Of a stretch of DNA of 32,000 nt, positions 3,586 to 19,810 are shown piece by piece; the first letter of the stretch is position 1, and every line of letters begins with the position of its first letter. The stretch is from Candidatus Kuenenia stuttgartensis. GTDB taxonomy: Bacteria > Planctomycetota > Brocadiia > Brocadiales > Brocadiaceae. Where the stretch lies: contig NZ_LT934425.1 in assembly GCF_900232105.1 (NCBI RefSeq), positions 2,220,001-2,252,000 on the forward strand, given 5' to 3'. The position numbers were made by a program, and so were the translations under genes. The notes beneath the pieces are model-generated. The model did not search any database. It was not told the origin of the DNA and saw nothing but the letters and a program-made list of their open reading frames with translations.

Positions 3586-3987
3586 ATGAAGCGGCTACAA
3601 ACCGAAGGTTCTAAGGTTAAAGTTGAATTTCTGATATCGTCTTACGATATACCAGAGGCTGTGCGTGGTTCCTATAACAAAGAGAAGTACCGATTTGTTA
3701 TTGAATTTAAATATATAGGCGACGAACCAACGAAAGCAGAACCGCAAGATAATTACGTTACATTTGTAATTGGCAAAAATAGTAGTCGGTTATATAGAAT
3801 TGAAATTGGCGTTAAAGCATTAAGGGTAGAAAAGGTTGAATTGCGAATGAAAATAAAAGATAAAGGCAAAAAAACACTCAACAACCTCATTCAGAAACCA
3901 ATAAATAGGCTTAGACAGGATAATTACCGGCTCACACAGAAGGCTTTATCTGAAATAGAAGATGAGCTTTACTCACCTTTGTTGTAA
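3586..3987 (+). CDS. Hypothetical protein (133 aa from the ATG at 3586)
   Basis: ORF 3484-3987. The first 34 codons overlap the opposite-strand remnant and look non-coding, so the ATG at 3586 (MKRLQTEGSK...) is preferred. No family recognised. The stop codon lies inside repeat C2. Confidence 0.4.
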   Translation: MKRLQTEGSKVKVEFLISSYDIPEAVRGSYNKEKYRFVIEFKYIGDEPTKAEPQDNYVTFVIGKNSSRLYRIEIGVKALRVEKVELRMKIKDKGKKTLNNLIQKPINRLRQDNYRLTQKALSEIEDELYSPLL

Positions 3988-4135
3988 CACTTTGGTTTTT
4001 CGAAAAATTCCAATACTAGCGCTGTTTGCCGCACAGTGTAGGGGCGAAGCATTTGCTATAAATTGTCATAAATGTGTTCATACCCAAACGGGCAAATGCA
4101 TCGCCCATACTTTTTCAAAAAACTAAAATGCTACC
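3984..4135. repeat. Composite: repeat C2 (rc, 3984-4011), 19-bp-stem hairpin (4038-4056 / 4092-4110), repeat C3 (4111-4135)
   Basis: gtaggggcgaagcatttgc pairs with gcaaatgcatcgcccatac (2 mismatches in 19). The flanking C copies face each other in inverted orientation. Confidence 0.8.
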
Positions 4136-4248
4136 CTCTGTTGGAAATATCTCATAGAAGGCAATTCAGATTATAAGCTCCCGCGAACTCAACTTGGAAA
4201 ATTGCAAATTCCTGGTAATTTCGGAAATACCTTACTTGATTCTACGAA

Positions 4249-4360
4249 CTAAAATTAGGTATGATGTCGCTTGAATTCAAGTCTGGCAATGATTTTTGGA
4301 AAAGAGTTGCAGACCATATTTATTCCAGACCAGCATTGTAAATAGATACGGTGACCCCAT
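4249..4360. repeat. Dispersed repeat family A, full-length copy
   Basis: ctaaaattaggtatgatgtcgcttgaattcaagtctggcaatgatttttggaaaagagttgcagaccatatttattccagaccagcattgtaaatagatacggtgaccccat. About 90% identical by eye to 7675-7793. Confidence 0.85.
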
Positions 4361-4498
4361 GACCCTTTATGCAAATCTCATGTTCTCATCAGTATAACTG
4401 AAATTTAACAGCGAATTACTGTAAAGCCGTTAAGCGGAAGAAAAAGAGAAATAAGTATTGCACAATCATCCTTAATGTGGGATATTTGATGCGAATGT

Positions 4499-4858
4499 AT
4501 GACTTGGAAAAGCGAGATGTTAAAATCTATTATTTGGATAGGTTCTTCATTGAAAGACTTGAAAGAATTTCCAAAAGAAGTACAAAGAGAATTTGGGTAT
4601 GCATTATATCAGGCACAGATGAATAAAAAGCATCACAGAACGAATCCACTAAAAGGTTTCGATGGTGTTATGGAAATTGTCAGTGATTAGGATAAAGATA
4701 CCTACAGAGGAATATATACTTATAAACTGGGAGTGAATATTTACGTGCTCCATACTTTCAAAAAGAAATCCAAAAAGGGCATAAAGACTCCGAAAGAAGA
4801 AATCGAGGTCATAAAGCAACGATTAAAAAGAGCGAAAGAAATAGCCGAAGGAAAATAA
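4499..4858 (+). pseudogene. RelE/HigB-type (phage Gp49-like) toxin gene interrupted by an in-frame TAG at 4688-4690
   Basis: The frame reads ...NPLKGFDGVMEIVSD*DKDTYRGIYTYKLGVNIYVLHTFKKKSKKGIKTPKEEIEVIKQRLKRAKEIAEGK*. Both halves match the Gp49/HigB pattern (YR..Y, VLH.F.KKS.K.P). The total of 120 codons is in one frame. The likely true start is the ATG at 4517 (MLKSIIW). Confidence 0.7.
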
Positions 4859-4859
4859 G

Positions 4860-5186
4860 ATGAAAGAAGATTATATCGTCGGTTCAGGAAACGTATTTAA
4901 TGATTTAGACTTTGAAAATCCGGAAGAAGAATTAGCTAAAGCAAGATTGGCTTCAATTATTAATGATATAATTGAGGAAAGAGGACTTTCCCAGGAGCAA
5001 GCCGGAAAAATTCTTGGAGTAAATCAACCGAAAATATCTGCTCTAAAAAATGGGAGATTAAAGGGTTTTTCTATGGAACGGTTATTTTCTTTTCTAGAAA
5101 AATTAGATCAACACATAGAAATAACCATTACCGATAAATCTAAAGTTAAAGCGAAGCGTAGTATTGAAGTCGCATATATACATTGA
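4860..5186 (+). CDS. XRE-family HTH antitoxin (HigA-like)
   Basis: 108 aa. GLSQEQAGKILGVNQPKISALKNGRLKGFSMERLFSFL is a classic HTH_37/XRE motif. The ATG lies 1 nt after the toxin stop. Confidence 0.8.
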   Translation: MKEDYIVGSGNVFNDLDFENPEEELAKARLASIINDIIEERGLSQEQAGKILGVNQPKISALKNGRLKGFSMERLFSFLEKLDQHIEITITDKSKVKAKRSIEVAYIH

Positions 5187-5278
5187 TCTTGTTCGTTTTA
5201 AAGGGTTACACATTCCTTTATCTTAAGTTTGATAGGGCAGGCAGTCACATCTGGGTCAGTCACACAATCAGATAATCA

Positions 5279-5332
5279 GGGGACACTTCCCATATTGCTT
5301 GCTTGATCTTGGGAAAATAAGGGAAGTGTCCC
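5279..5332. repeat. Hairpin repeat family B, copy 2
   Basis: ggggacacttcccatattgcttgcttgatcttgggaaaataagggaagtgtccc. It lies between convergent genes and could double as a bidirectional terminator. Confidence 0.8.
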
Positions 5333-5386
5333 TATATTTCCCTGAATAATAGTTGAATAATGAATGCCTGACCATCTGTCTCATGT

Positions 5387-5623
5387 TCACGACAAGACTA
5401 CTTCAGATTTTTCTCCGGTTGCTTCGTTAATTACGAAGAGCTTGCCGGCATCTTCCTTTTTCAACTGTTCGTTGGCGTTAAGTAATTCAATCCCATAAAT
5501 GGTACCGTCAGGAGCTATGTCTATGTTAATCTCTTCCCCTACCTTTATTGTCTCCACTCCTGTTGTTTTCTCATGCAACCTTATATAAGCTATGTTGTAT
5601 CTCGGATCATAGGTTAGTCTCAT
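5387..5623 (-). CDS. DUF2283 family protein (putative antitoxin partner of DUF4258)
   Basis: MRLTYDPRYNIAYIRL...IDIAPDGTIYGIELLNA matches the DUF2283 pattern (YD.e.D..YI ... D.dG...GIE.l.a). Confidence 0.7.
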   Translation of the reverse strand: MRLTYDPRYNIAYIRLHEKTTGVETIKVGEEINIDIAPDGTIYGIELLNANEQLKKEDAGKLFVINEATGEKSEVVLS

Positions 5624-5638
5624 TTTCTTCCCTCCTTC

Positions 5639-5887
5639 CTAAAAATATTTGGTTATTACTGTAACAACTATCCAGTCGTTATTTTCTTTTACGGCAATTG
5701 CTTCAATCTGTTTTGTTGCATACTGCATCTCACGCCAAATACCGTCAAAATGAAAGTTTCTTCTGAAACCTGTCCTGCCAAATTTTGCCAGAAAAGTTTC
5801 GCCTCTTTCAACAGTTGCGACAACCTCATCTTCTGTTGCTCCACGCGCAGTCATTCGCTCTCTTGCATGCGGATGAAGTTTTATCAC
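5639..5887 (-). CDS. DUF4258 family protein (putative toxin)
   Basis: MIKLHPHARERMTARGATEDEVVATVERGE...VVTVITKYF fits the DUF4258 pattern. It lies 15 nt upstream of its DUF2283 partner. Confidence 0.65.
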   Translation of the reverse strand: MIKLHPHARERMTARGATEDEVVATVERGETFLAKFGRTGFRRNFHFDGIWREMQYATKQIEAIAVKENNDWIVVTVITKYF

Positions 5888-5948
5888 TGTTCATTCTCCT
5901 TTTTCCCAGATTCTTATTTACGTAATTATACGACATTTTCTTTCCAAT

Positions 5949-6078
5949 GCGGGTTCAGGTTTGCAACTCAATGCTATTAAGTTAAGAATTATTTGGTTAA
6001 AACAACCCCCTAAATCCCCCTTTTCTAAGGGGGACTTGAGGAATTCCCCCTTAATAAATGGGGTTAGGGGGTTGTTTT
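5949..6078. repeat. Half copy of hairpin family D (gcgggttcaggtttgcaac) followed by G/C-run palindromic repeat family E, copy 1
   Basis: Outer inverted repeat aaaacaaccccctaa (5999-6013) / ttagggggttgtttt (6064-6078). Inner hairpin tccccctttt-c-taaggggga. Related copies at 14327-14389 and 19826-19888. Confidence 0.8.
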
Positions 6079-6383
6079 GCCAGCATTTATTGTGTATTCA
6101 AAAAGTCGTTGCCGAAGGCAGCCTGATTTAAATGTTTTTAAAGTACAACCTTGCCTTGATTCTTTCTAAAGAAATTGGTGGTTCAAAGATTTTTATGGGA
6201 TCAAAAGCTATGGCGAACCAGTTTGTATCTTTAGTTGCAGGGCATTGATAGGGTGGTTTTGAAAATTGCATTATGCCAAATACATTTTTGCCTGTAATTG
6301 AAATATGAAGGCCGGACCCTGAACTCTCTCTTGATCCACCCTACCGCAAAACCTGCTTAAATAAAATGAAAATTCCTATACTA

Positions 6384-7412
6384 TCAAGCTATAGCTTCGT
6401 CTATAGCGTCTTTTGCTTTGATAATTGCCTGCGCAAGCCGAGGAAGTGTTTTTTCTTTATCTGCATGTACAGAAGCCTTTGATGAAGCATTAATTTCACC
6501 AATTAACATATATGCTTTACTTATTTTTATGTCTTTATTGCTGATTACATACTTATATTGATTCCAAGAGGTGTCTGAAAGATAAATAAAATAATCATTC
6601 TCTAAATCTTTAGTTAATCTTGTTACTTTAATGTTTGGGGAATGCGCTGGATAAGCAGCTTCTATAAGCAAACGGTTAAGTCTTTTTATGAAATATTTCT
6701 CTAATTCGTTTAATTCGGCGGCTGATTTTTTTCTGTAGTCATTCGTATGGTTAACTAATCCTTCTGTTTCTTCTGAGAGCTTAAACGCAGGTATTCTTTT
6801 TTTAAAAATATCATCATAGAGCATAGGTTTACACAAAAGTTTGTTTAGCTCTTTATCAACTACTACTATCTCATCAATTCTATTTGCTTTTAAATCTTTA
6901 TTAATTTCTTTACAGAGATTTTCTAGACTTACGTTTTTAAATTCATCGTCGTTATGAAAGTCAAAATTGATAGCATTATCAATGCCTTTTTCTGATAAAT
7001 TTTTTGTTAGTTTTCGTAAATCGTTTTCTAATAATTCTTCAAAAATATTTTTATATTTTTCGGTTAAATAGTTTTTATTATTCTCTAATTCTTTTTTTAT
7101 CGTTTTTCTCCTTTTTCTATCAGTACGGAAGGACGTAAGCCAAGAACCAGCTAATGCGAGAATAGCTCCAACAAACATATTGATTAAAGAAAGTATAAAA
7201 TCAAACACCCTCTTCTTATTACGTTCGTAACAAAGTACTACTTTTTTTGCCTCTTTCCTGAAGATATTTTCGTTATTTTTATCTTTTTCGATAGAGACGT
7301 TATTGTTGCTTATTAAAGAGGTGGTACTTTCATGAGCGAATAAATTTAAAGCGATACTTATTAAGATGATGAATACTAATATGATATTTTTAGAAATGCC
7401 AAAGATTTTCAT
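6384..7412 (-). CDS. Hypothetical membrane protein with two predicted TM helices and a Lys/Glu-rich, probably coiled-coil, body
   Basis: 342 aa. Hydrophobic stretches IILVFIILISIALNLF and FDFILSLINMFVGAILALAGSWL. Very AT-rich like the neighbouring pAgo and SIR2 genes. No family recognised. Confidence 0.6.
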   Translation of the reverse strand: MKIFGISKNIILVFIILISIALNLFAHESTTSLISNNNVSIEKDKNNENIFRKEAKKVVLCYERNKKRVFDFILSLINMFVGAILALAGSWLTSFRTDRKRRKTIKKELENNKNYLTEKYKNIFEELLENDLRKLTKNLSEKGIDNAINFDFHNDDEFKNVSLENLCKEINKDLKANRIDEIVVVDKELNKLLCKPMLYDDIFKKRIPAFKLSEETEGLVNHTNDYRKKSAAELNELEKYFIKRLNRLLIEAAYPAHSPNIKVTRLTKDLENDYFIYLSDTSWNQYKYVISNKDIKISKAYMLIGEINASSKASVHADKEKTLPRLAQAIIKAKDAIDEAIA

Positions 7413-7595
7413 TTCGCTTACATGTCCTATTAAAAAAACCTTCCTTTACGCCTTGCAATAGGATACTTGTAACAAAAGTTGTAAAATTTGCAAGTTTTTT
7501 AAAGTTGTGGACAGAGGGTCGGAGGGTCAGTACTATTGTTCAGAATTTAAATATGAAGGAGACCCCATGCCTAAGCGCTGAGGCATCATAGTCAA

Positions 7596-7672
7596 GGGAT
7601 AATCAGGGGACACTTCCCATATTTCTTGCTCGATCTGGTGGAAAATATGGGAAGTGTCCCCTGATTATTCCC
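7596..7672. repeat. Hairpin repeat family B, copy 3 (extended stem gggataatcaggggacacttccca...tgggaagtgtcccctgattattccc)
   Basis: Longest and most symmetrical copy. It directly abuts repeat A3. Confidence 0.85.
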
Positions 7673-7674
7673 GG

Positions 7675-7793
7675 CTAAAATTAGGCATGATGTCGCTTGA
7701 ATTCAGGTCTGGCAATGATTTTTGTAAAAGAGTCGCAGACCATATTTATTCTAGACCAGCATTGTAAATGTCAATAGATAAGGTGACCCCATC
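7675..7793. repeat. Dispersed repeat family A, full-length copy
   Basis: Aligns end to end with 4249-4360. It contains both the gtaaat and gtcaatagataagg variants seen separately in copies A2 and A1. Confidence 0.85.
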
Positions 7794-7829
7794 AACTATC
7801 TCAAAGGTCCGACGCTGCTGGCTGCGTTA

Positions 7830-9092
7830 TCAGAACGGTTCTTCGTAATCTTTCATTTCTTTATCGTATTTATCAATGAAACTGAGCAACAACTCACCCT
7901 TATTAGAAAAATATTTCTCAATAAAGATAGAAGTTTCTAAGGGAACGAAGTCAATATTCTGAGCTGTAATGCCAGTATAATTATATTCTGGCAGTTCAGA
8001 AAAAAAGGAGTCCTTTTGGATATTTTTTATATATACCTCTAAATCCTTCGGATTTGTACCTTTAGGATATTTTATTTTGAAAAAATCGTTTTCATCAAAA
8101 TCAATTATTTCACTATTATAAATTCTTTTTGGACCAAACTTGGGATTAACGATGATAAGTCTGTTAAAACCTTTTGACGCGTAAAATAGCAGATTATTAA
8201 TATATGGATCAAAAAAACTATAACCTATAACAAATATATATTTTTTAATTCTTAGCAATTCATTAAATTTTTTCATAAGGCTAAAAAAAGGTTCAACCGA
8301 AATGGTTTTAGATCCTTGTCCAAAAATCACATATGGATTATGAAAGGGTTCAATATACTCTTTTTCTTCTTCAGGAAACTTTGATTCTTCATATATTTCA
8401 CCAGATTCAACTCTGGCCCAGTCAATAGAACCATGAAGTTTATATAAATTTATCCTTCCAAACTCGTCTAATTTATCTTCATCATCAATACCTATCCATT
8501 TACCGTTATAAAAACCCCTCCAGGGAATTTCATGATGAGCGCCAAAATACTTCTCAATTACTAAGTCATTATTTAAAGTACAAACGTCTAATCGGAAACT
8601 CTGCTCTGAATAGCCTTGAAAGAATGCCCGTATTGGGGCAAGGTAGCCGAATTTATCTTCATCAGATTCCAACCAATGATTTTTCAAAAGGGATTTCAAT
8701 TTCAATTCCAATTCTTCAAAAAGATTTTTTCTGTCCTGTTTTTTATAAGCAGTCTCCAGTTCCACCAATTTATCTGCCCAATTACCTGTAATCGGATAGG
8801 GCAAAAAAAGTTCTCTATTTTTAATCCTTCTAATGAGGAGAACCAATTCTTCAATATTTGGGTTAAATTCTATTTCTCCGCCAGTTTTTATTGATCGCCA
8901 CTCGGCATGGTATGCCATACAGGATATTAAAAACTGTAAGGCTTCTTTTTCGGTTGGAGTAAAACTATCATCATCCGAAAGAATCTTTTTCTTTAAATCG
9001 CTGAACATTTCACCTGATGTTAAACATCCTGTTCCAAAGGAGAAACCAGCTCCCAAAAAGAATAGCGTCTTTTTTATAAGTTCTACTTCCAT
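7830..9092 (-). CDS. SIR2-like (SIR2_2/ThsA-type) putative NADase effector
   Basis: 420 aa. FLGAGFSF (encoded about 9037-9060), a TLNNDLVIE TxNxD-like motif and LYKLHGS (8428-8448) are the three signature motifs of defence-type SIR2 domains. The start lies 1 nt after the pAgo stop. Confidence 0.8.
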   Translation of the reverse strand: MEVELIKKTLFFLGAGFSFGTGCLTSGEMFSDLKKKILSDDDSFTPTEKEALQFLISCMAYHAEWRSIKTGGEIEFNPNIEELVLLIRRIKNRELFLPYPITGNWADKLVELETAYKKQDRKNLFEELELKLKSLLKNHWLESDEDKFGYLAPIRAFFQGYSEQSFRLDVCTLNNDLVIEKYFGAHHEIPWRGFYNGKWIGIDDEDKLDEFGRINLYKLHGSIDWARVESGEIYEESKFPEEEKEYIEPFHNPYVIFGQGSKTISVEPFFSLMKKFNELLRIKKYIFVIGYSFFDPYINNLLFYASKGFNRLIIVNPKFGPKRIYNSEIIDFDENDFFKIKYPKGTNPKDLEVYIKNIQKDSFFSELPEYNYTGITAQNIDFVPLETSIFIEKYFSNKGELLLSFIDKYDKEMKDYEEPF

Positions 9093-9093
9093 A

Positions 9094-11112
9094 TTAAATA
9101 AACCAAGGAGTTTTTTGCGAAATCTTGTTTTCTGAGATTTCTCCGTTAAAATGCAAAGAAAAATCTGCTATCATTTTAGAATATTTGGTTGTTACAGGTT
9201 GACTTGTTTGCATCAGTCCCTTCCAATTTAATCGTGAAAATTCATATACCTGCGACAATATTTCTCGATGTGAAAAACCACCTACATCTGCATGGAATAT
9301 TTTCACTTTAATGGGCAACTCATCTTTTACTTTACGAACTGGCTCTTTTTCATATCTATTATTATTGAAAAGCAAATATTCGTCTTTACCAATTTTTACA
9401 TAAGTTCCACTTTCAGGCATCCCCATATCATATTCGGTATCAAAACATATATCTGACTTGCTTTTGGTATCATTGACTTCAGTAAGCGCAAAAGGTATAT
9501 CTAAATTTAATTTGTTGTAAATTACCTGCTCAAAATTTTTTATCTCATCTTTTCTTGGTGGTTTGTAATAATGAATAGTTAATCTGTCAGGACTACCAAT
9601 AGACTTTGAATAGTCATCTATTGCGATCTTCAAATGAGATATTAAATCTTCTCCTGCTCTCTCCTCTGAGAAACCGTATATCCTTCCCAAGCGCCCTTCA
9701 TTGTCGAAAAATACAGCGCTGCCTATCCATTTCTGGTCTTGTAATTTTTTGTAATTATATCCAATCACTAAATCATTATATTTTTTTGTGTTTAGTTTCC
9801 ATGGGATTCCGCCTAATTTTGCCAATATAGCAATTGCTATGTTGGGCAAGCAATAATTAAAATTTCCACTACGAACAGTTTTATTTGCAATAAACTGAGA
9901 GGTAATTCCTTTATCAAGTAAGAGCTTTTTAATTTCATAATAAGTTTTTTCCTCTTCTTCGTCACTTTCGTATTTGCTAAATGGCCCTATAATTACTGCC
10001 GCATAGTTATAATAGTCATTATCGGGAAATTGGGCGGCAAGAAATTCCTGTAACTTTGTGGATAATTCTCCAGTGCTTGAATAGTATAGGCTTTTTTCCT
10101 TGTCCAATACTACAGGAATACCAACATATGTTAGCAATCCTGGAAATTGTTTTAACCCGTTTCTTAAATACTGATATACTTTATTGGCATCATCCCTTTC
10201 ATTGTAAATAAAAAGGATTTTTATATCGTTAGCATTATCAATCTTTTTATACGGTCCATACTCCCGCATTCCAATTACTGCATTAACAGTTTTATTTTCA
10301 CCGCCAAAAACCATTAAATTATCTTTTAATATTATTCTTTGCCTGTCTTTATCTAAAACGGTTTTAAAACCAGTTTTATCAATATTAAAAAAAACAGATT
10401 CAAAATCCTTTAGTCCCGATTTAAGAAAATCAAGAATGTTTTTATACTCTGTTTTATAGCTGCAAGGAATGACTCTATTCGCTCCTTCTATTCCTGACCG
10501 CATTTGTTTATCAGCGATAACTTTAAATGAATCTCCTGATAGAATTTGTTCATATTTACAGATTAATTTATTCCCAATGTTAACTACTTTCCGAATACCA
10601 TCAATTTGAAAAATTTCTTTTCTACTTATTAATGTAAACTCACTTCCAACACTAATGGATAGCTCTTCATTAAAAGATTTATAAACTAAATCATACCTAA
10701 TATATATTTCCCAGTCTGTTTTAAAATCTTCTTTACGTTTATAAACGGAGAGGTCAAAAGCAGTAGGATTTAGATCAACATAAAAACCTTTATCTAAAAA
10801 GTAATTAGTTAACTCCTGTTTAATAATTAATCTCTTTAAAGATTTAATATCAAAATTATCAGATGAAATGAAATAAGAATTATTATCCCTATCCAGAGAA
10901 AATTCGATTTCAACTGGGTCTTCATCCTTAATATTGTTTTTTTTAAGCCACTCATTAAAATTATTTTTTGCTTCATCATTTTTGATTTTGTTTCTTAACC
11001 ATTGTGATTCTTTAGCAGTGATGACAAAACCTTCTTTATTTTTAATGTTTACAAACCATTGTTTGTCTAAATGGAACCGCAAATTTGTTCTATTTAACAA
11101 CAAAGTACTCAT
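9094..11112 (-). CDS. Prokaryotic Argonaute (MID-PIWI), catalytically inactive, with a roughly 290-aa N-terminal region and no obvious PAZ
   Basis: 672 aa. PIWI hallmark AILAKLGGIPWKL (about 9799-9823). MID 5'-end pocket pattern YYEIKK...GITSQFI..NK (Y-K-Q-K type). C-terminal ...PVTTKYSKMIADF...TPWFI. DEDX positions read GYNY (not GxDV) and IHYYK (not RDG). GAGGGAGG SD lies 6 nt upstream. Confidence 0.85.
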   Translation of the reverse strand: MSTLLLNRTNLRFHLDKQWFVNIKNKEGFVITAKESQWLRNKIKNDEAKNNFNEWLKKNNIKDEDPVEIEFSLDRDNNSYFISSDNFDIKSLKRLIIKQELTNYFLDKGFYVDLNPTAFDLSVYKRKEDFKTDWEIYIRYDLVYKSFNEELSISVGSEFTLISRKEIFQIDGIRKVVNIGNKLICKYEQILSGDSFKVIADKQMRSGIEGANRVIPCSYKTEYKNILDFLKSGLKDFESVFFNIDKTGFKTVLDKDRQRIILKDNLMVFGGENKTVNAVIGMREYGPYKKIDNANDIKILFIYNERDDANKVYQYLRNGLKQFPGLLTYVGIPVVLDKEKSLYYSSTGELSTKLQEFLAAQFPDNDYYNYAAVIIGPFSKYESDEEEEKTYYEIKKLLLDKGITSQFIANKTVRSGNFNYCLPNIAIAILAKLGGIPWKLNTKKYNDLVIGYNYKKLQDQKWIGSAVFFDNEGRLGRIYGFSEERAGEDLISHLKIAIDDYSKSIGSPDRLTIHYYKPPRKDEIKNFEQVIYNKLNLDIPFALTEVNDTKSKSDICFDTEYDMGMPESGTYVKIGKDEYLLFNNNRYEKEPVRKVKDELPIKVKIFHADVGGFSHREILSQVYEFSRLNWKGLMQTSQPVTTKYSKMIADFSLHFNGEISENKISQKTPWFI

Positions 11113-14100
11113 TTATTTACCTCCCTCAATTATTGTAATTTCTACCCCGGTCAAACCGTAGAGTTTATAAACAAGCTGGTCAATCTGCCTTTCCAGCGGT
11201 GACGTGTCGGCATTAGGGTCTTTTTGCTTTTCGGTGAGGATTTGGTCAACAAGAGAATCTAATTGTTTCTTATCTGTATTTTTAAGGATTGGTATGGGAA
11301 TTTGTTCGAAATATTGAGGCTTGACTTCGATGAATCCACCGCTTCTTACAACACATATCGTTTTCAAAAAATACCAAACAACTTTTGAGTTAAGAATCCC
11401 TAATAGCCATTTCGCATCGGTTGGCAAGAAAACTGCCGGCGCATTAAGGTATGTACCGCTAATATCATAGGCAAATTTGTTGGAGTTTTGAAGGTTGGGG
11501 AATATTATTTTTGGTTTTGCAAACAGGTCATAATAAGCACAGTTTCTAAGTTCCCACCAGAACTCCCCCTTGTCATATCGCTTTCTTGCTGCCTCAGCAA
11601 AGGGCTTAAGATGGTTCATGATTGATGGAAAAGCAGCCCTCATTGCTTCAAATGCCTTTGCTTCGTCCTGTCCGTTAAAATACGTACGTGTTGACTTGTT
11701 TTCGAAGACGATCATCTTTTTATCAATCGCTGGGGTCTGCCATTTCTTGATATCTTTGCCCTCGAAAACAGGTTTGAGGTGCTTGCTGTTTCCCAAGTCT
11801 TTTTCTGTTATAAATGCCTCATTTAATGCTGTTTTAATACCATAATAGCACTTTCCAAATACGTCTTTCAACTTCTTATGAATGGATATTTTCTCTGATA
11901 ACTCCACTTGTCCCTGATGATCAAAACTCCAGGAAAACTGCTTCAGTGCTGAACTTGGTAGAAGCGTATAAGAAATGGCTCTACCCGAATTAAAATTGCC
12001 AAATAGATCTTCGGTTACTTTGAGATATGCAAATGCTTCCTGATGCTTTGATTTTATCGCAAGAAGGATTATTGGGTAGGTTGTGGTACCCTCAAAAACA
12101 CCAACAGATTTAAAGTCAACATACTTGTTTAATGAAAAATTATCCGAGACATATTTACGTAGAGTTTTTCCGGCAGTTGTTTTATCAAACGCATTATTGA
12201 TAAAACAAAAAACTCCCTGATTTGTCAGAATATTAAAAGACCTCTCATAGAAATAATAAAAAATATCTCCGCTTGGGGCAAATACGGTGTAGGTAGCCTT
12301 AAGATAAGTTTTCAAATCTCCCAAATCTTCAGCCCGAATATACGGCGGATTCCCAATCACCACATCAAACCCCTCCTTAATCCCAAACATCCACTCTGTG
12401 TCAAAGAAAGTAGCCGAGTTGTTCTGGTCGTAAGGATCCCAGGCGGCTATTTTTTTGGCAGTGGCAGGTTGGAAGTCATGGTTTTCTATTAGCAATTCAG
12501 CCAGTTCGTCACGCAATTGTTTGTCTTTTATACGGCAGGTTTCCTTACGCCTGGGCGTCCGGGCTTCAAAGTAATCGTGCCGCACCTTTTTCAGTTCGGC
12601 CTTTTTCTTTTCTATATCAGGGTTGGTAAACAAATGCGCCTTTTCTTTTTCCAGCCCTATCAATGTATTGGCAGCCACAAATTTCGTTTCCAGGTTTGGC
12701 AGGGGACGTACGCCTAAGTTGTCTCTCCTGTGATTTACCTTTTGATCAACAATCAGGGAAATAAAGAACCGCAGCTTGGCTATCTGTACGGCGATGGACT
12801 GTATATCTATACCATAAATGCAGTTCTCTATGAGGTAGAGCTTGCGTCCATAGTCAAATTCGTTGTTATCAAAGGCTTCTTCAATATCTCTGCGCGTGTT
12901 GTGCAGGTCTTCAATTACTTTTTCCCTGACACGGGTGTCTGAAATGCCTTCGGCATCTTCAATCAGTTTATCTACCTTATCTAACTGCCGTTGTTTCCAT
13001 CGGGCGTTGTTGGGATCGAGTTTATGCAGTATATGAACCATCCTGTGCAGTATGCCCATTGGGAAAGCCCCGGAGCCGCAGGCAGGGTCTAAAATCTTAC
13101 AGGTATCAATCGCCTTAACAAGAACCCCGGCTTCCTCAGTATTGAAGGGATTGGGGTTTTCAGAATAACTGAGCAGGTCGCGTAATCTTTCTTCGTTTTT
13201 GTCGGTGTTGTTAGATTCTTCGCTCCGCTCAGAATGACAAAAGGGGACAGAATGACCGGCTGAGACGGAACTACGGGATGGGACATCATGACAAGATGAG
13301 AGAGATTGCTTGAGGTAGGCCAGCAATGATTCGTCCACCATGTAGTTTACAATCTCGCGCGGAGTGTAAAACGAACCGGTCTGTTTGCGGGCAGTGGTTT
13401 GGGTTTCGGGATTGTAGTTGGCTAAAAGGTTTTCAAATACCTTACCAAGCAATTCGGGGTCGAGGGCTATTTCTTCTTCTATGGGTGTATTTTCGGCAAC
13501 AGTAAATTTATAGCTGTTCAGAATGTCAATGATCCCGTAAACCTTTTCTTTATTTTTTTTGGATGAACTGTAGATCCTGCTTAAATCGACGTCCACACCT
13601 TTTTCGTTAAAAAACAGCTCGTCCGGCACTTCCAGCACATTATCTTCCCGGTCGCTGAAGCTGTCAATACGGATGCGCTTTCGTTTGCCGTCATCGTCCA
13701 GTTCCTTATCCAGGCATTCAAACAAACCGCCGTTGAGAAAAGGGATCGGAGAAAAGTATTGCTCCAGTGTTTCTTTTGGTTTTACAAATTCATTCTCGTA
13801 ACGGAATACGTTGTGGATGAAATAATGTCCATCGCGTCCGCTGTCATTTTTAGTCCTGAACCCGCGCTTGCCCATTTCGGTGTTTAGGGTAGCAAAGAAC
13901 AGGTTTTGCAGGATGGCTTTATAGTAAGCGCTTTTCTTATTGTCAGTATATTTGAGCAGTTTCTTCAACTGCTTCTCATCAAATAATGCATCCGGAACCA
14001 GTCCTTTTTCTTTCAGGAACCAAACAAACATCAAACGGGTGATGAGACGGATAACACTGGTTGCATTGCGTACATCTTTGTCCTTTCCTGCATCATCAGG

Positions 14101-14925
14101 AAACACCACTTTTTGTGTGGCCCAAAAATACCAGTTGGCAAGTTCCCTGAAGAAACGTTTGTTGAGTTCGGAGGTGTCTAATGCCTTTTGCCAGGCATTA
14201 TGCAGTTCCACAAAATTGGTAAAGCCGTGTTTGTTTTTTAGTTCATTGAATGAGAGGTCGAAGAGGATTTCTATGTGGGCGCGGTGGGTGACTGCGCCAT
14301 CGCCGCCGGAAACAATTTCCTTGCCCAAAACAACCCCCTTACCCCCTTTTTTAAGGGGGATTTCTACATCACCCCCGCCAGCGGGGGATATGCGGATGTT
14401 TTTGATGAGGGTTACTTTCTGAAGTACATCCTTGCTTTCGTCCCGTTTGTGCAGCCTGCGGTTGATGACAGAAAGTGTGAGCGAAAAACCGTGTTTGAAC
14501 AAAATCATAACTGGCATGGGAAACAGGCGATTGACTTCACGGGTGATGTGTGAAAGTTCGGTTCTGCTGTAGTGTTCTTTCGCCAGTTCTATGGCAAAGA
14601 ACAAATACGTTTCAATGACAGTGCGGTCAACCTGTTTGGTATCGAACAGTGACAATTGCCTTGTTACCTCTTCCTTAGAAAGCTGGAAGAGCAGGTCAAC
14701 ATATTTCCAGTCTTTTACCAATGCCTTGTCTTCATTAAACATGGATTGACTATCTATGAAGGAATCTCTGAATGCAATATAGGCAGGCTTTTCCAAAGGC
14801 GCCCGGCGTTCGGTAATATAGCCAAGGGTTTGAAAGAGGTTTAATGCATTTTCGGAAAGGTTGCCAGCGCCAAATTGCTGGATGGCTTCCTTTATTTTTT
14901 GCCTGAGGTCTTTCGCCATAATCAT
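11113..14925 (-). CDS. Large Eco57I-family gamma-class N6-adenine DNA methyltransferase with TaqI-like C-terminal target-recognition domain (PglX / DrmMI / type IIG-like)
   Basis: 1270 aa. Motif I ILDPACGSGAFP. Motif IV VVIGNPPYI (12337-12360). C-terminal GEFWWELRNCAYY...GGFIEVKPQYFEQIPIP is typical of TaqI_C specificity domains. The first codons overlap a REP copy, so the start could be the ATG at 14919 (MAKDL...). Confidence 0.85.
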   Translation of the reverse strand: MIMAKDLRQKIKEAIQQFGAGNLSENALNLFQTLGYITERRAPLEKPAYIAFRDSFIDSQSMFNEDKALVKDWKYVDLLFQLSKEEVTRQLSLFDTKQVDRTVIETYLFFAIELAKEHYSRTELSHITREVNRLFPMPVMILFKHGFSLTLSVINRRLHKRDESKDVLQKVTLIKNIRISPAGGGDVEIPLKKGGKGVVLGKEIVSGGDGAVTHRAHIEILFDLSFNELKNKHGFTNFVELHNAWQKALDTSELNKRFFRELANWYFWATQKVVFPDDAGKDKDVRNATSVIRLITRLMFVWFLKEKGLVPDALFDEKQLKKLLKYTDNKKSAYYKAILQNLFFATLNTEMGKRGFRTKNDSGRDGHYFIHNVFRYENEFVKPKETLEQYFSPIPFLNGGLFECLDKELDDDGKRKRIRIDSFSDREDNVLEVPDELFFNEKGVDVDLSRIYSSSKKNKEKVYGIIDILNSYKFTVAENTPIEEEIALDPELLGKVFENLLANYNPETQTTARKQTGSFYTPREIVNYMVDESLLAYLKQSLSSCHDVPSRSSVSAGHSVPFCHSERSEESNNTDKNEERLRDLLSYSENPNPFNTEEAGVLVKAIDTCKILDPACGSGAFPMGILHRMVHILHKLDPNNARWKQRQLDKVDKLIEDAEGISDTRVREKVIEDLHNTRRDIEEAFDNNEFDYGRKLYLIENCIYGIDIQSIAVQIAKLRFFISLIVDQKVNHRRDNLGVRPLPNLETKFVAANTLIGLEKEKAHLFTNPDIEKKKAELKKVRHDYFEARTPRRKETCRIKDKQLRDELAELLIENHDFQPATAKKIAAWDPYDQNNSATFFDTEWMFGIKEGFDVVIGNPPYIRAEDLGDLKTYLKATYTVFAPSGDIFYYFYERSFNILTNQGVFCFINNAFDKTTAGKTLRKYVSDNFSLNKYVDFKSVGVFEGTTTYPIILLAIKSKHQEAFAYLKVTEDLFGNFNSGRAISYTLLPSSALKQFSWSFDHQGQVELSEKISIHKKLKDVFGKCYYGIKTALNEAFITEKDLGNSKHLKPVFEGKDIKKWQTPAIDKKMIVFENKSTRTYFNGQDEAKAFEAMRAAFPSIMNHLKPFAEAARKRYDKGEFWWELRNCAYYDLFAKPKIIFPNLQNSNKFAYDISGTYLNAPAVFLPTDAKWLLGILNSKVVWYFLKTICVVRSGGFIEVKPQYFEQIPIPILKNTDKKQLDSLVDQILTEKQKDPNADTSPLERQIDQLVYKLYGLTGVEITIIEGGK
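13195..13300. repeat. Probable repeat-derived in-frame insertion inside the MTase gene (peptide SCHDVPSRSSVSAGHSVPFCHSERSEES)
   Basis: Low-complexity segment with a cagaatgac direct duplication. Another frame of the same strand reads ...VILSPFVILSGAKNL... (track ORF 13089-13289). I recognise these peptide signatures as typical of a widespread short repeat. Boundaries are approximate. Confidence 0.5.
14290..14395. repeat. Family E repeat inserted in frame inside the MTase gene (peptide SPAGGGDVEIPLKKGGKGVVLGKEIVSGGDGAV)
   Basis: aaaacaacccccttaccccctttttaagggggatttc (from 14327) aligns with intergenic copy E1 aaaacaaccccctaaatcccccttttctaagggggacttg (from 5999). It is followed by the hairpin acccccgccagcggggga. 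Outer boundaries are approximate. Confidence 0.7.
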
Positions 14926-16355: not shown

Positions 16356-19300
16356 TTACTTTATGACTAACCACGTTACTAACTCAAAATTATCCAAATC
16401 ATGCACCTGTTTCGACTGTGGTATCAATAATGCACCACGGTCAGTGGTGAGTTTTTGATTGCTGCGTTTTCTGAATACATGACTTATTTCATATACGGCT
16501 TTTTTTAGCAATTCAGTATACTTACCCATCTCCTCGCCATTCCTGGTTTCTGTATTGAATAATTCACAAAGCTTCTCATAAGGCGCTTTGCGCCCCTGAC
16601 ACATCAGGCGGTAGATTTCCAGTATCTGTTTGGCGTTGGTGTAATTGAAACGAACCGTTCCGTCTTCGCGAATGTATGCCAGAAAGTAAGGTTGCAATGG
16701 GTTTACTTCTTCGTTGCCGCCGGTGTCGCCTTTTTGCTTCAGGCAATATACCACACCCGGTTTGATAATATTCTTTTCGGCTGGAGTAAAGCGGCTTGCA
16801 TCTGTATTTTGCGCATGAATGCCAGATGGTGAAGGCACGACGGCATATAAACCAAAGGGCGCATCTTCCAGCTTCTTACTATTATTTTCCAAAAATGTGT
16901 GCAATTCGATGCGGAAATCATCCAGGGTAAAATCGGTTAACGAAATGCTTTCGCTCATTTCTTCGAGGTCGAGCACTTCTTTTTGCAGTTTTTTCAGTTG
17001 CCGGTTACGGTACTTCAAATCATCTGTGATAAGCTCTTCTATTTGTTCGGTATTCAGTATGTTGTCTTCGCCGGTGGCGGTAACGTCAACCAATGCCATC
17101 CGGGACTCCACGCGTTCTTTCAGGTTGATGTAATTATCAAGGTCTTTGGTAGGCCAGAAGTTTATCAGTTGGATTTTCTTATTCCTGCTTCCCAGCCGGT
17201 CAATACGGCCAAAACGCTGAATGATGCGAACGGGATTCCAGTGAATATCGTAGTTAACCAAAAAATCACAATCCTGTAGGTTCTGCCCTTCGCTGATGCA
17301 GTCAGTGGCGATCAGTATATCTATCTCCACTTCCTGCGGCATGGATTTCATTAATTCCCTGTTTTTAGAAACGGGTGAGAAGTTGGCGAGGATGTTTGAA
17401 AAATCATTTTTGCCGAATGTGGTTTGGTTGGTATTCCCCGCTACCAATGCAATGTTCAATTTCAAATCTTTTTTCACCCATTCTTTCAGACAATTATATA
17501 GGTATTGAGCGGTATCGGCAAAGGCGGTAAAAACGATTACCTTCCTGTTGTTGCTGTTCAGTGGTTGATTAATTTTTTGTTCGATTAGTTTTTGAAGGTC
17601 TTTCAGTTTTGCGTCACGTTCCGGGGTCACCGCAACTGCCGTATTATACAACTCATTGAGGGCTTCTTTGTCTTTTGTTAAATCGTTCAACCAATCTTCC
17701 AGACGTAAATCAGCTAAATCAAATTTCAATTTTTTCCCTACCTGCCATTGTTCAAGGTCGTCGGTATTTTCTTCTAATTCGTCTTCATCCGGTTCCAATG
17801 TTTCCAAAACCTCTTCCTGCGATTTAGCGTTTGATTTAAGGAATTCATTGATTCTGCTTTCAAGTTTTTCGATTTTCTGAATTGTTCTGTCCATTGAAAT
17901 CTCAAATGATTCAATACAGCTTTCCAGGCGTTTCAGGAAGTTTACCTTCATCATTCCGATAAGGAAGTGCTCACGGTCGCTTTGTTTGAAGGCAAGGATT
18001 TCCGTTCCGGCTAACGCTTCATATTTCTGCTTCTTTTCATCCTTCACATAGGCAGAAGGATTAAATACCGAAAGCTTGTATTGCAGGATTTTTTTGTTCA
18101 GCGCATCGTAGGTAAAAAAGCGGTCTTTTATATCAATATTCGGGTAGAGGGAATGAGGCTTTAACCGTTCTGGGAATTGCCCTATGGCGTCAATATTGTA
18201 AAAACCCTTTATGTGCTTTCTGCTCCGGGCAATAGTGAGTTCGTCCAGCAATTTGAAGAAGGATGAATCAAGGCGTTCCATTAATTGCTTAACTGTTCTG
18301 TCGGGATTCTTTTTATGGTCAGCCCAAAATGTAAACTGTGTCTGGGCATTCCTGAGTGTAAGGGCAATATCCTTGATTTGTGTACTCTCAAAGAGGGCAT
18401 CATTTTCGCCTTCCGTAATGAGTGAGATTTGATTTCTTAAATCGCGAAGGTTATTGTTGACCGGCGTAGCAGAAAGCATGAGTACCTTTGTTTTCAATCC
18501 CGACTTGATGATTTTTTCCATCAGCCATTTGGCACGGTTCATTTTGATGGCGCCGTCATCTTTGGCCTTTTCCATCGGATTGCCCCGAAAATTATGTGAC
18601 TCATCGATAACTACAAGGTCATAGGCGCCCCAATTGAAGTTTTCAAGGTCTATGCCGTTTGCATCGGATTTACCGGTTATTCTGCCGAGGTCGGTATGGT
18701 ACAGAATGGTATAGTTAAACCGGTCTTTGGTAAACGGATTAAGTGCGTTGTTTTGGCTCGCCTGGTAAATCGTCCAGTTAGCCGAGAGTTTTTTTGGGCA
18801 GAGCACAAGAACGCGGTAATTCAATAATTCGAAATAACGGATTACCGCCAACGCCTCAAAAGTCTTGCCCAAACCGACGCTATCCGCGATGATGCAGCCG
18901 TTGTGTTTCAGGATTTTATTGATGGCCCCTTTTACGCCGTCTTTCTGAAAGTCGTACAGCTTATGCCATATTTCGCTTTCAAAAAATCCGGTGCGTTCAT
19001 TCAGCAAACCGCCGCGTTTTTGTTCGTCAATATAGTTCCCAAAGAGGTGGAACAGGGTTTTGAAGTAAATAAACTCCGGTTCATTTTCAATATAAAATTG
19101 TTCAAGGTCTTTAAGCACTTCGGCTTTAACATCTTCGACGAGTCCTGTTGTGTCGTTCCACAACTCATTAAACCAGTTTGTCAGGTCATCCAAATCCCTT
19201 CTGTCCTGGATAACCATATTCAATTCGATGTTCGGGCTTCCGCCCATTCCGAGTCCATGAACAGTGAAATTGGAACTCCCCATGACCGCTTCTTTAACCC

Positions 19301-19694
19301 CGTTTGGATTTTCCATCAAATAAAGCTTGCCGTGCAGGAAGTTTGGTTTCACCATGGATTTGACGTGAACCTTTTCTTTAATCCAATCCGAGCATTCTTT
19401 GGAAAGGGATTTTTGTTTTAAGAGGCTTTCAATTGGGATTACCAGTGAATCGTCCTCGATTTTGAAGTCGCGCCTGTTGGTTTTTGCCGGGTCCAGTGAT
19501 TTGATAAAGGATGGCTCACCAAAGAGGAACCTTAGGTGATCTGTTCGGTCGAGTTGGTTTTTTAATTGTTTGTATGCGTAAATGGTGAAGTATGCCGAGA
19601 CTATTGATAAACCGGCGCCTTGCTTTACATTATCAATAAGGAATTGGCCGACTGTTCCATTTTTATGATTGTCACGGATTGAAGTATTGTTCAT
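16356..19694 (-). CDS. PLD-nuclease-domain / SNF2-family helicase fusion protein
   Basis: N-terminus: FLHGKLYLM (19314-19340) plus GSSNFT form an HxK PLD motif. Middle: DSVGLGKT (Walker A), VVIDESHNFRG (DExH). C-terminus: QRFGRIDRLG (helicase motif VI). The track ORF starts at a TTG (19733), so the ATG at 19694 (MNNTSIRD...) is preferred. Confidence 0.85.
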   Translation of the reverse strand: MNNTSIRDNHKNGTVGQFLIDNVKQGAGLSIVSAYFTIYAYKQLKNQLDRTDHLRFLFGEPSFIKSLDPAKTNRRDFKIEDDSLVIPIESLLKQKSLSKECSDWIKEKVHVKSMVKPNFLHGKLYLMENPNGVKEAVMGSSNFTVHGLGMGGSPNIELNMVIQDRRDLDDLTNWFNELWNDTTGLVEDVKAEVLKDLEQFYIENEPEFIYFKTLFHLFGNYIDEQKRGGLLNERTGFFESEIWHKLYDFQKDGVKGAINKILKHNGCIIADSVGLGKTFEALAVIRYFELLNYRVLVLCPKKLSANWTIYQASQNNALNPFTKDRFNYTILYHTDLGRITGKSDANGIDLENFNWGAYDLVVIDESHNFRGNPMEKAKDDGAIKMNRAKWLMEKIIKSGLKTKVLMLSATPVNNNLRDLRNQISLITEGENDALFESTQIKDIALTLRNAQTQFTFWADHKKNPDRTVKQLMERLDSSFFKLLDELTIARSRKHIKGFYNIDAIGQFPERLKPHSLYPNIDIKDRFFTYDALNKKILQYKLSVFNPSAYVKDEKKQKYEALAGTEILAFKQSDREHFLIGMMKVNFLKRLESCIESFEISMDRTIQKIEKLESRINEFLKSNAKSQEEVLETLEPDEDELEENTDDLEQWQVGKKLKFDLADLRLEDWLNDLTKDKEALNELYNTAVAVTPERDAKLKDLQKLIEQKINQPLNSNNRKVIVFTAFADTAQYLYNCLKEWVKKDLKLNIALVAGNTNQTTFGKNDFSNILANFSPVSKNRELMKSMPQEVEIDILIATDCISEGQNLQDCDFLVNYDIHWNPVRIIQRFGRIDRLGSRNKKIQLINFWPTKDLDNYINLKERVESRMALVDVTATGEDNILNTEQIEELITDDLKYRNRQLKKLQKEVLDLEEMSESISLTDFTLDDFRIELHTFLENNSKKLEDAPFGLYAVVPSPSGIHAQNTDASRFTPAEKNIIKPGVVYCLKQKGDTGGNEEVNPLQPYFLAYIREDGTVRFNYTNAKQILEIYRLMCQGRKAPYEKLCELFNTETRNGEEMGKYTELLKKAVYEISHVFRKRSNQKLTTDRGALLIPQSKQVHDLDNFELVTWLVIK

Positions 19695-19728
19695 AGGTTC
19701 ATGTATTATCTTCTTTCCTGGAAAAATG

Positions 19729-19810
19729 TTCAATATTCAATTCTCAATATTCAATTCTCAAATTGTTGCTCATTTGCCTCTATTCTTTTACATTGAATAT
19801 TGAATATTAA
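19729..19810. repeat. Low-complexity tandem/inverted repeat (tcaatattcaattc x2 ... attgaatattgaatatt) over the 5' end of the helicase gene
   Basis: ttcaatattcaattctcaatattcaattctcaaattg (19729-19765) and cattgaatattgaatattaa (19791-19810) are mutually inverted. Confidence 0.8.

Follow-up and report, generated by a model that had tools for sequence, protein, structure and literature searches.

A predicted nuclease-dead long-B-type Argonaute and its stand-alone SIR2 partner in Candidatus Kuenenia stuttgartensis: a probable BPAS immune module

In a 32,000-nucleotide stretch of the Candidatus Kuenenia stuttgartensis genome (assembly GCF_900232105.1, contig NZ_LT934425.1, positions 2,220,001 to 2,252,000; hereafter the window, whose own numbering is used throughout), we analyzed two adjacent minus-strand genes encoding a prokaryotic Argonaute (pAgo) and a SIR2 protein. 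A sequence-only reading of the window had singled out the pair as an unusual architecture, a truncated, PAZ-less and catalytically dead Argonaute upstream of a separate SIR2 protein, and both open reading frames (ORFs) were recovered at the coordinates and with the lengths it had given. The pAgo gene comes first and the SIR2 gene lies downstream, a one-base gap separating the pAgo stop from the SIR2 ORF. The two proteins, and the domains assigned to the pAgo, are as follows.

9094..11112, minus strand: long-B-type pAgo, predicted to be catalytically inactive, putative sensor, 672 aa (ORF, Pfam, PADLOC, AlphaFold, Foldseek)
10789..11112, minus strand: N domain of the pAgo, approx. aa 1-108 (secondary structure of the model; boundaries inferred)
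10621..10788, minus strand: linker L1, approx. aa 109-164, three long antiparallel strands (DSSP strands E121-130, E134-145 and E150-163)
10462..10620, minus strand: vestigial module at the PAZ position, approx. aa 165-217, three short strands and one short helix
10282..10461, minus strand: linker L2, approx. aa 218-277 (model elements H219-233, E242-244 and E257-259)
9793..10281, minus strand: MID domain, approx. aa 278-440, with the pocket Y391-K395-Q406-K432 (pocket invariance; profile alignment to the RsAgo and EcAgo MID domains)
9097..9792, minus strand: PIWI* domain, approx. aa 441-672, with no DEDX tetrad (Pfam Piwi; alignments to AfAgo, RsAgo and EcAgo)
7830..9092, minus strand: stand-alone SIR2_2 effector, bAgaS homolog and predicted NADase, 420 aa (Pfam, PADLOC, alignment to GbbAgaS)

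The domain and model matches of both proteins lie far above chance. Pfam Piwi matched pAgo residues 385-650 above the gathering score (E=2.7e-12), and the PADLOC pAgo model PDLC02385 aligned residues 25-672 with model positions 16-674 of 674 (E=5.7e-112); among the other PADLOC models, PDLC02381 (3e-50) came ahead of the EcAgo-type PDLC02379 (4e-33). The full-length protein was modelled by AlphaFold with a mean pLDDT of 90.3 and a pTM of 0.87, and Foldseek searches with this model returned full-length Argonautes, including RsAgo, MpAgo, Siwi and hAgo2 (TMq 0.63-0.72). In the MID domain, the 5'-phosphate pocket Y391-K395-Q406-K432 was invariant in 65/65 family members. The Y-K-Q-K pocket proposed by the sequence-only reading is thus present, with the correction that its fourth residue is K432 of the LAKLGG segment and not the lysine of the 'NK' at 410-411. 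The PIWI catalytic positions are substituted as had been claimed, and they are so across the same 65 members: the first Asp of the tetrad is replaced at N453 (52 N and 13 G), the third at Y516 (63 Y and 2 F) and the fourth tetrad position is K646 (56 K, 8 E and 1 S). With N, Y and K at these three positions, no DEDX tetrad is present. Judged by these residues, the pAgo appears competent for guide binding and nuclease-dead.

In the downstream protein all three SIR2 motifs noted earlier are in place (GAGFS at residue 14, TLNND at 172 and KLHGS at 218). It matches Pfam SIR2_2 above the gathering score (E=4.6e-7) and, nearly end to end, the PADLOC model Aga_SIR2 PDLC02414, which covers residues 29-412 (E=5.2e-87). 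Alignment to GbbAgaS (HAG96802), which together with GbAgo (HAG96803) makes up the GbBPAS system, gave 30% identity over SIR2 residues 7-316 (E=2e-21). The motifs TLN(N/Y)D and KLHGSIDW are in register between the two proteins, N174 corresponding to N155, a residue validated by mutation, and H220 to H203, and G14-A15-G16, N174, D176 and H220 were invariant in 30 sequences, comprising 29 SIR2 proteins of related loci and GbbAgaS. The conservation of these residues indicates that the NAD-binding and catalytic site is intact. GbbAgaS matched both PADLOC Aga_SIR2 models (E=2.7e-120 and 4.4e-104), and since it and the window SIR2 both fall end to end under PDLC02414, the two are effectors of one family. 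The same end-to-end coverage suggests that the extra ~70 aa of the window protein (420 aa against 348 aa in GbbAgaS) are probably insertions and not a new domain, residues about 320-420 lying outside the GbbAgaS alignment. The SIR2 family profile also matched solved defence-associated SIR2-like proteins (8w9l, 8yhx and 8j4u).

The pairing of the two genes is widely conserved. A protein search returned 118 pAgo relatives, almost all of 655-690 aa, and a genome scan found relatives in at least 565 species genomes. The best 80 loci derive from Planctomycetota, Thermodesulfobacteriota, Bacteroidota, Proteobacteria, Nitrospirota, Actinomycetota, Ignavibacteriota, Chloroflexota and DPANN archaea, with the closest relatives (89-91% identity) in metagenome-assembled genomes of Candidatus Brocadiaceae. 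At every family locus with a 657-687-aa pAgo, a SIR2 homolog starts -4 to +36 nt from the pAgo stop, the sole apparent exception being a pAgo cut by a contig end. The arrangement is kept in ~40 loci, and SIR2-paired loci occur across the first six of these phyla and in the DPANN archaea. Pairwise identities of pAgo and SIR2 correlated with r=0.97 over 9 loci, as would be expected of partners that are inherited together and interact. No SIR2 accompanies the less closely related pAgos (30-37% identity over MID-PIWI, 667-710 aa). Nine of these were examined, and the genes downstream of them encode FUR- or ArsR-family regulators, an AbiJ-NTD3/AAA ATPase, a helicase, an EEP nuclease and a DUF6660 protein, a variety that makes the downstream slot appear modular.

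Among these SIR2-less loci, those of Bacteroidota have a gene for a small FUR-family protein after the pAgo gene, in many cases overlapping it by 4 nt, and no obvious toxic effector. The small downstream proteins lie at 5395-5811 in L042, 5245-5655 in L058, 5239-5646 in L069 and 5314-5730 in L071 (FUR-family) and at 5421-5726 in L045 (ArsR-type), L numbers denoting related loci in their own coordinates. The AbiJ-NTD3/AAA ATPase was seen in L048, the helicase in L075 and the EEP nuclease in L079.

The closest solved relatives of the pAgo by profile are the long-B proteins AfAgo, RsAgo and EcAgo. The profile of the 65 family members scored 129 bits against AfAgo and 104 bits against both RsAgo and EcAgo (EcAgo E=1.3e-28), compared with 57 and 50 bits for the long-A proteins CbAgo and KmAgo and 48 bits for the short pAgo 8in8. 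A member of the family was catalogued earlier: WP_072985233.1 (663 aa) is entered as 'longB' and 'YK-putative' in Table S1 of Ryazansky et al. 2018. All seven fragments printed for this accession are found in the 663-aa pAgo ORF of locus L046 from Leeuwenhoekiella palythoae (3854-5845), which is 39% identical to the window pAgo and is followed one base past its end by a 427-aa SIR2 homolog. In the same study the YK motif of MID is described as typical of long-B pAgos and HK/RK as found in short pAgos, and SIR2 proteins encoded on their own (orthogroup og_44) are reported as associates of catalytically dead long-B pAgos (Ryazansky et al. 2018). Neither WP_072985233.1 nor og_44 lists were found in the supplement text of Song et al. 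2023. On the basis of the profile scores and the table entry for its relative, the window pAgo is placed in the long-B type. Membership of the long-A active-nuclease pAgos was considered and rejected, as the tetrad is substituted and a full-size PAZ is lacking. The profile, the table entry and the homology to GbbAgaS bear out the interpretation that the sequence-only reading had preferred, a dead long-B-type pAgo with a separate SIR2 effector.

The reading was less exact on the N-terminal half of the pAgo. The MID strand IKILFIYNERDD begins at residue 297, in agreement with the ~290 residues counted ahead of it. No canonical PAZ could be accommodated there, and to this extent the description as PAZ-less holds, but in the model a ~53-aa module (residues 165-217, block-mean pLDDT ~83-92) fills the PAZ position. 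This module is the most variable part of the pAgo, with a mean majority-residue frequency of 0.28, 0/53 columns reaching 80% and a length of 43-90 aa across the family, and no conserved 3'-end pocket was evident. A full-size PAZ is thus replaced by some 53 unconserved residues. The module occupies the topological position of PAZ in the model, and from this position and its size it may be a PAZ* homolog.

A fold search that had been suggested for residues 1-290 was carried out on these residues modelled alone (pLDDT 85). Only the N-lobes of Argonaute, PIWI and DdmE proteins matched, with no APAZ effector chains among the fold matches, and the alignments were 50-100 columns longer than the query, which implies that the targets carry extra residues. 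When the family was compared by hhalign with the N-terminal 399 aa of EcAgo, just the L2/MID junction was aligned (EcAgo 277-365, probability 1%), so that the comparison gave no residue-level mapping of PAZ by sequence. A link from the window family to EaAgo and EcAgo through the SIR2-less long-B loci was also sought, and neither N-lobe fragment matched any of them.

Calling the protein truncated was an overstatement, because compact long pAgos normally have a MID domain that starts around residue 290-300. The boundaries reported for EcAgo are N 1-92, L1 92-155, PAZ 155-218, L2 218-308 and MID 308-484 (PMC13535254), so that in size the window pAgo resembles EcAgo both in L1 (EcAgo residues 92-155) and in its PAZ module (~53 aa against a mini-PAZ of ~60 aa). 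MpAgo-like proteins of ~640 aa are listed with a 'small' PAZ of 55 aa at 154-208 and with MID from 284 (Ryazansky et al. 2018), a spacing which shows that an N-lobe of ~290 residues can still hold a reduced PAZ. The N-lobe of GbAgo is even shorter, its MID strand lying at about residue 240 in the alignment with the window pAgo. As modelled, the window pAgo is a complete but compact Argonaute composed of N, L1, vestigial PAZ, L2, MID and PIWI. The 2018 table gives WP_072985233.1 from Leeuwenhoekiella palythoae a 'normal' PAZ at 87-192 (Ryazansky et al. 2018, Table S1). In terms of the model, this range would correspond to the last N-domain helix, L1 and the vestigial module, and the label is probably an alignment artefact.

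Long-B systems with associated effectors have been named BPAN, BPAS and BPAM (Song et al. 2023, PMC10620215), and the published operons of all three place the pAgo ahead of a stand-alone effector. The judgement that the architecture is unusual came from a comparison with SPARSA alone; as pAgo-first is the norm in long-B systems, the gene order is reversed relative to SPARSA only. In GbBPAS, Sir2 alone is toxic, GbAgo suppresses the toxicity and both proteins co-purify, while the CloDF13 plasmid triggers a loss of NAD+ for which residue N155 of GbbAgaS is required (PMC10620215). The window pAgo is colinear with GbAgo at 23% identity over 393 GbAgo residues (E=5e-8), the sequence comparisons with GbAgo and EcAgo being made with their first ~393-399 aa, which take in the N-lobe and a portion of MID. 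GbAgo has PDLC02381 as its best PADLOC pAgo model, and the window pAgo has PDLC02385. Because the pAgos are the more distant partners and their best models differ, yet PDLC02381 outscores PDLC02379 on the window protein, the window pair is placed by these sequence comparisons as a sister subfamily of GbBPAS inside BPAS.

Taken together, it is very likely that the locus is a BPAS, an abortive-infection immune module in which a long-B pAgo is coupled to a stand-alone Sir2 effector (bAgaS). By analogy with GbBPAS, EcBPAN and RsAgo, the dead Argonaute is probably a sensor of invading DNA that activates the NAD+-destroying SIR2. The pAgo would load short 5'-phosphorylated RNA guides, and the pAgo-SIR2 complex would hold the NADase silent. 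Pairing of the guide with complementary plasmid or phage DNA of an invader would then release or activate SIR2, and the resulting NAD+ depletion would cause the infected cell to stop growing or die, blocking the spread of the invader. Several points weigh against the assignment. Identity to the sole characterized BPAS is just 23% for the pAgo and 30% for the SIR2, and the difference in best pAgo models points the same way; the long-B placement leans on profile scores and on the table entry of a relative that is 39% identical; and the complex, the type of guide and the activation of the NADase are carried over to this subfamily by analogy. In addition, tblastn searches of plasmid and phage collections with the window pAgo gave no match at E<=1e-10, a null result that is, however, neutral as to function. 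A lesser possibility is that a subfamily with a vestigial PAZ and a SIR2 longer by ~70 aa activates its NADase otherwise than GbBPAS does.

The pair is embedded among other genes, and its surroundings constitute a defence island with a type IIG restriction-modification (RM) gene and an HKD+Snf2 helicase gene. The neighbouring features are listed below.

11113..14925, minus strand: type IIG RM protein (Eco57I + TaqI_C), 1270 aa, context and not core (Pfam, PADLOC)
16356-19733, minus strand: PLD(HKD)+SNF2 helicase, 1125 aa (PADLOC candidate C3a139 'HKD+Snf2', E=2.4e-133)
7649..7661, minus strand: terminator-like hairpin, ~170 nt past the SIR2 stop (consensus scan alone)
6384-7412, minus strand: 342-aa ORF whose product begins with a signal-like or transmembrane segment and has a transmembrane segment further inside

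The G+C content of the pAgo-SIR2 pair (0.29-0.33) is below that of the flanks (0.38-0.49), which suggests horizontal acquisition into the defence island. The RM stop codon abuts the pAgo start codon on the same strand, and a homologous IIG RM gene was found 4-52 nt upstream of pAgo-SIR2, again in the same orientation, in seven non-redundant lineages of four phyla. The RM-linked loci are the window, L001 (RM gene at 5804-10000), L006, L018, L019, L022, L023, L024 and L040, and they include Brocadiaceae, Bacteroidota (L018, L019 and L040), Actinomycetota (L022) and Nitrospirota (L023 and L024). This raises the alternative of a three-gene composite, in which the RM protein works with pAgo-SIR2, for example as first-line restriction backed by second-line abortive infection or by shaping what the pAgo senses. 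Beyond the direct contact of the two genes in the window and the recurrence of the RM gene in these four groups, such a composite gains some support from the pAgo tree, where the RM-linked loci are clustered in part, although not cleanly, and most stand in neighbouring branches. However, ~80% of BPAS loci have no RM gene, the two genes of GbBPAS suffice for its function in E. coli (PMC10620215) and unrelated systems commonly cluster in defence islands. The divergence of the RM gene is also uncoupled from that of the pair: between the window and L001 the pAgo is 91% and the SIR2 94% identical and the RM 38%, between L023 and L024 the corresponding values are 82%, 79% and 42%, and identities correlate at 0.64 for pAgo-RM against 0.97 for pAgo-SIR2. 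This uncoupling ruled out the type IIG RM as an obligate, co-evolving third subunit. We therefore regard the composite as unlikely, and the same low probability applies to a mechanistic coupling of restriction with Argonaute-triggered NAD+ depletion, in which for example RM-escaped or RM-processed DNA would condition pAgo activation. The adjacency is read as a recurrent defence-island juxtaposition and not as a sign of a third subunit; it may represent a mobile cassette in which the RM gene diversifies rapidly.

Within the RM ORF there is an odd in-frame segment, SSCHDVPSRSSVSAGHSVPFCHSERSEESNN, at ~13190-13299 on the minus strand (RM residues ~553-590). A 25-nt core of this segment, GTCATTCTGAGCGGAGCGAAGAATC, recurs inside the L023 RM gene (L023 1817-1841), and the L001 RM is 128 aa longer and has a Pfam Y1_Tnp match, apparently near the same place. 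The segment may be a repeat or a mobile-element insertion tolerated in a linker. The HKD+Snf2 helicase and the type IIG RM look like a separate candidate defence system beside BPAS; in L001 a DUF1016/YhcG gene, missing from the window, lies between them.

On the other side of the pair, the terminator-like hairpin at 7649..7661 probably marks the end of the operon. The 417-nt spacer behind the SIR2 gene contains an inverted repeat with GGGGACACTTCCC, which gives a terminator-like score in both directions. This 13-nt sequence is present on both strands, at 7606-7618 (+) and 7661-7649 (-), as part of the larger inverted repeat. The 342-aa membrane ORF beyond it had no Pfam or PADLOC family match, and the 85 related loci contained no homolog of it. 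A role as third component or as an effector of the bAgaM type was rejected, and the ORF is placed outside the system because it is not conserved and is separated from the pair by a 417-nt gap with the terminator-like hairpin. Farther out are small genes of toxin-antitoxin or regulator type, HTH_37 at 4860-5186 (+) and a DUF4258/DUF2283 pair at 5387-5887 (-).

A second alternative derives the pair from SPARSA, as a short pAgo fused to APAZ with its SIR2 split off into a downstream gene. The effector is indeed a SIR2, and APAZ is homologous to the N-L1-L2 of long pAgos (PMC13535254), so an APAZ-MID-PIWI fusion would look alike. However, the MID motif is YK and not the HK/RK of short pAgos, the short pAgo 8in8 scored 48 bits where long-B structures scored 104-129, and the family member WP_072985233.1 is catalogued as longB. 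The effector is moreover of the SIR2_2 (og_44) type and not the SIR2_1 of SIR2-APAZ proteins, the PADLOC SIR2-APAZ model (class I, PNTD) matched it weakly over the 35 residues 8-42 (E=0.014), and the N-lobe fold matches were Argonaute-type with zero APAZ chains. An APAZ-pAgo fusion with a detached SIR2, which the sequence-only reading had offered as its alternative, is on these grounds rejected as very improbable. Weaker still, to the point of being scarcely credible, is the view that the two genes are unrelated defence-island neighbours, a pAgo acting alone (as first described for RsAgo) beside a SIR2 of a Thoeris-like or SIR2-HerA-like system: the closest solved relatives of the SIR2 profile do come from other defence systems and the type IIG RM and HKD+Snf2 genes do mark a defence island, but the one-base spacing, the pairing invariant in ~40 loci of many phyla, the near-perfect co-divergence, Argonaute-associated models as the best SIR2 matches and the lack of an adjacent HerA or ThsB partner gene all speak against it.

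For discovery, the BPAS reading matters little, since the layout was catalogued in 2018, its function was described in 2023 and both proteins are modelled in PADLOC. What the window pair defines is a widespread and tightly conserved BPAS subfamily with a pAgo of ~660-690 aa and a SIR2 of ~375-440 aa, present in seven or more phyla, the DPANN archaea among them, and sharing ~23-30% identity with the single characterized BPAS; no BPAS structure was among the PDB matches found. The 'normal PAZ' that the 2018 table assigns to a family member is probably a wrong name for L1 together with a vestigial hairpin module, and the recurrent type IIG RM adjacency is a side lead open to experimental testing.

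Among known systems, the window pair is most readily compared with GbBPAS. In both, a dead long-B-type pAgo is encoded ahead of a separate Sir2_2 protein that keeps the catalytic Asn and His, the SIR2 proteins match the same Aga_SIR2 models and the pAgos have a compact N-lobe. The mechanism is presumed to be alike, with SIR2 silent in the complex and NAD+ depletion triggered by the invader. The N-lobe of the window pAgo has ~55 aa more, its MID strand starting at 297 where that of GbAgo lies at ~240, and the window SIR2 has 420 aa against 348 aa in GbbAgaS. EcBPAN (EcAgo + EcbAgaN, PDB 23wq, PMC13535254) is likewise a long-B system with the same domain order, a dead PIWI and the effector downstream, and EcAgo has a miniature PAZ of ~60 aa and a MID that begins near residue 300. 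Its effector, however, is a PD-(D/E)XK DNase where the window has SIR2, and EcAgo keeps 2/4 tetrad residues and has an N-lobe ~30 aa longer. RsAgo and AfAgo with its AfAgo-N partner resemble the window pAgo in their YK-type pocket and dead PIWI. RsAgo, which uses 5'-P RNA guides against DNA, is ~100 aa longer and nuclease-associated, whereas AfAgo has no N-lobe in cis, N-L1-L2 being supplied by a separate protein. The MpAgo-like long-A pAgos with a 'small' PAZ have nearly the same domain spacing as the window pAgo, but they are long-A, catalytically active, use 5'-OH guides and are associated with CRISPR loci. With SPARSA (e.g. GsSir2/Ago) the window pair has in common a dead pAgo controlling a SIR2 NADase in abortive infection by NAD+ depletion. 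The SPARSA pAgo is MID-PIWI only (~450-500 aa), whereas that of the window has 672 aa with a modelled N-lobe; the SPARSA SIR2 is of the SIR2_1 type, fused to APAZ (the N-L1-L2 equivalent) and encoded by a separate upstream gene, and its pAgo carries an HK/RK motif in MID, where the window has SIR2_2 and YK.

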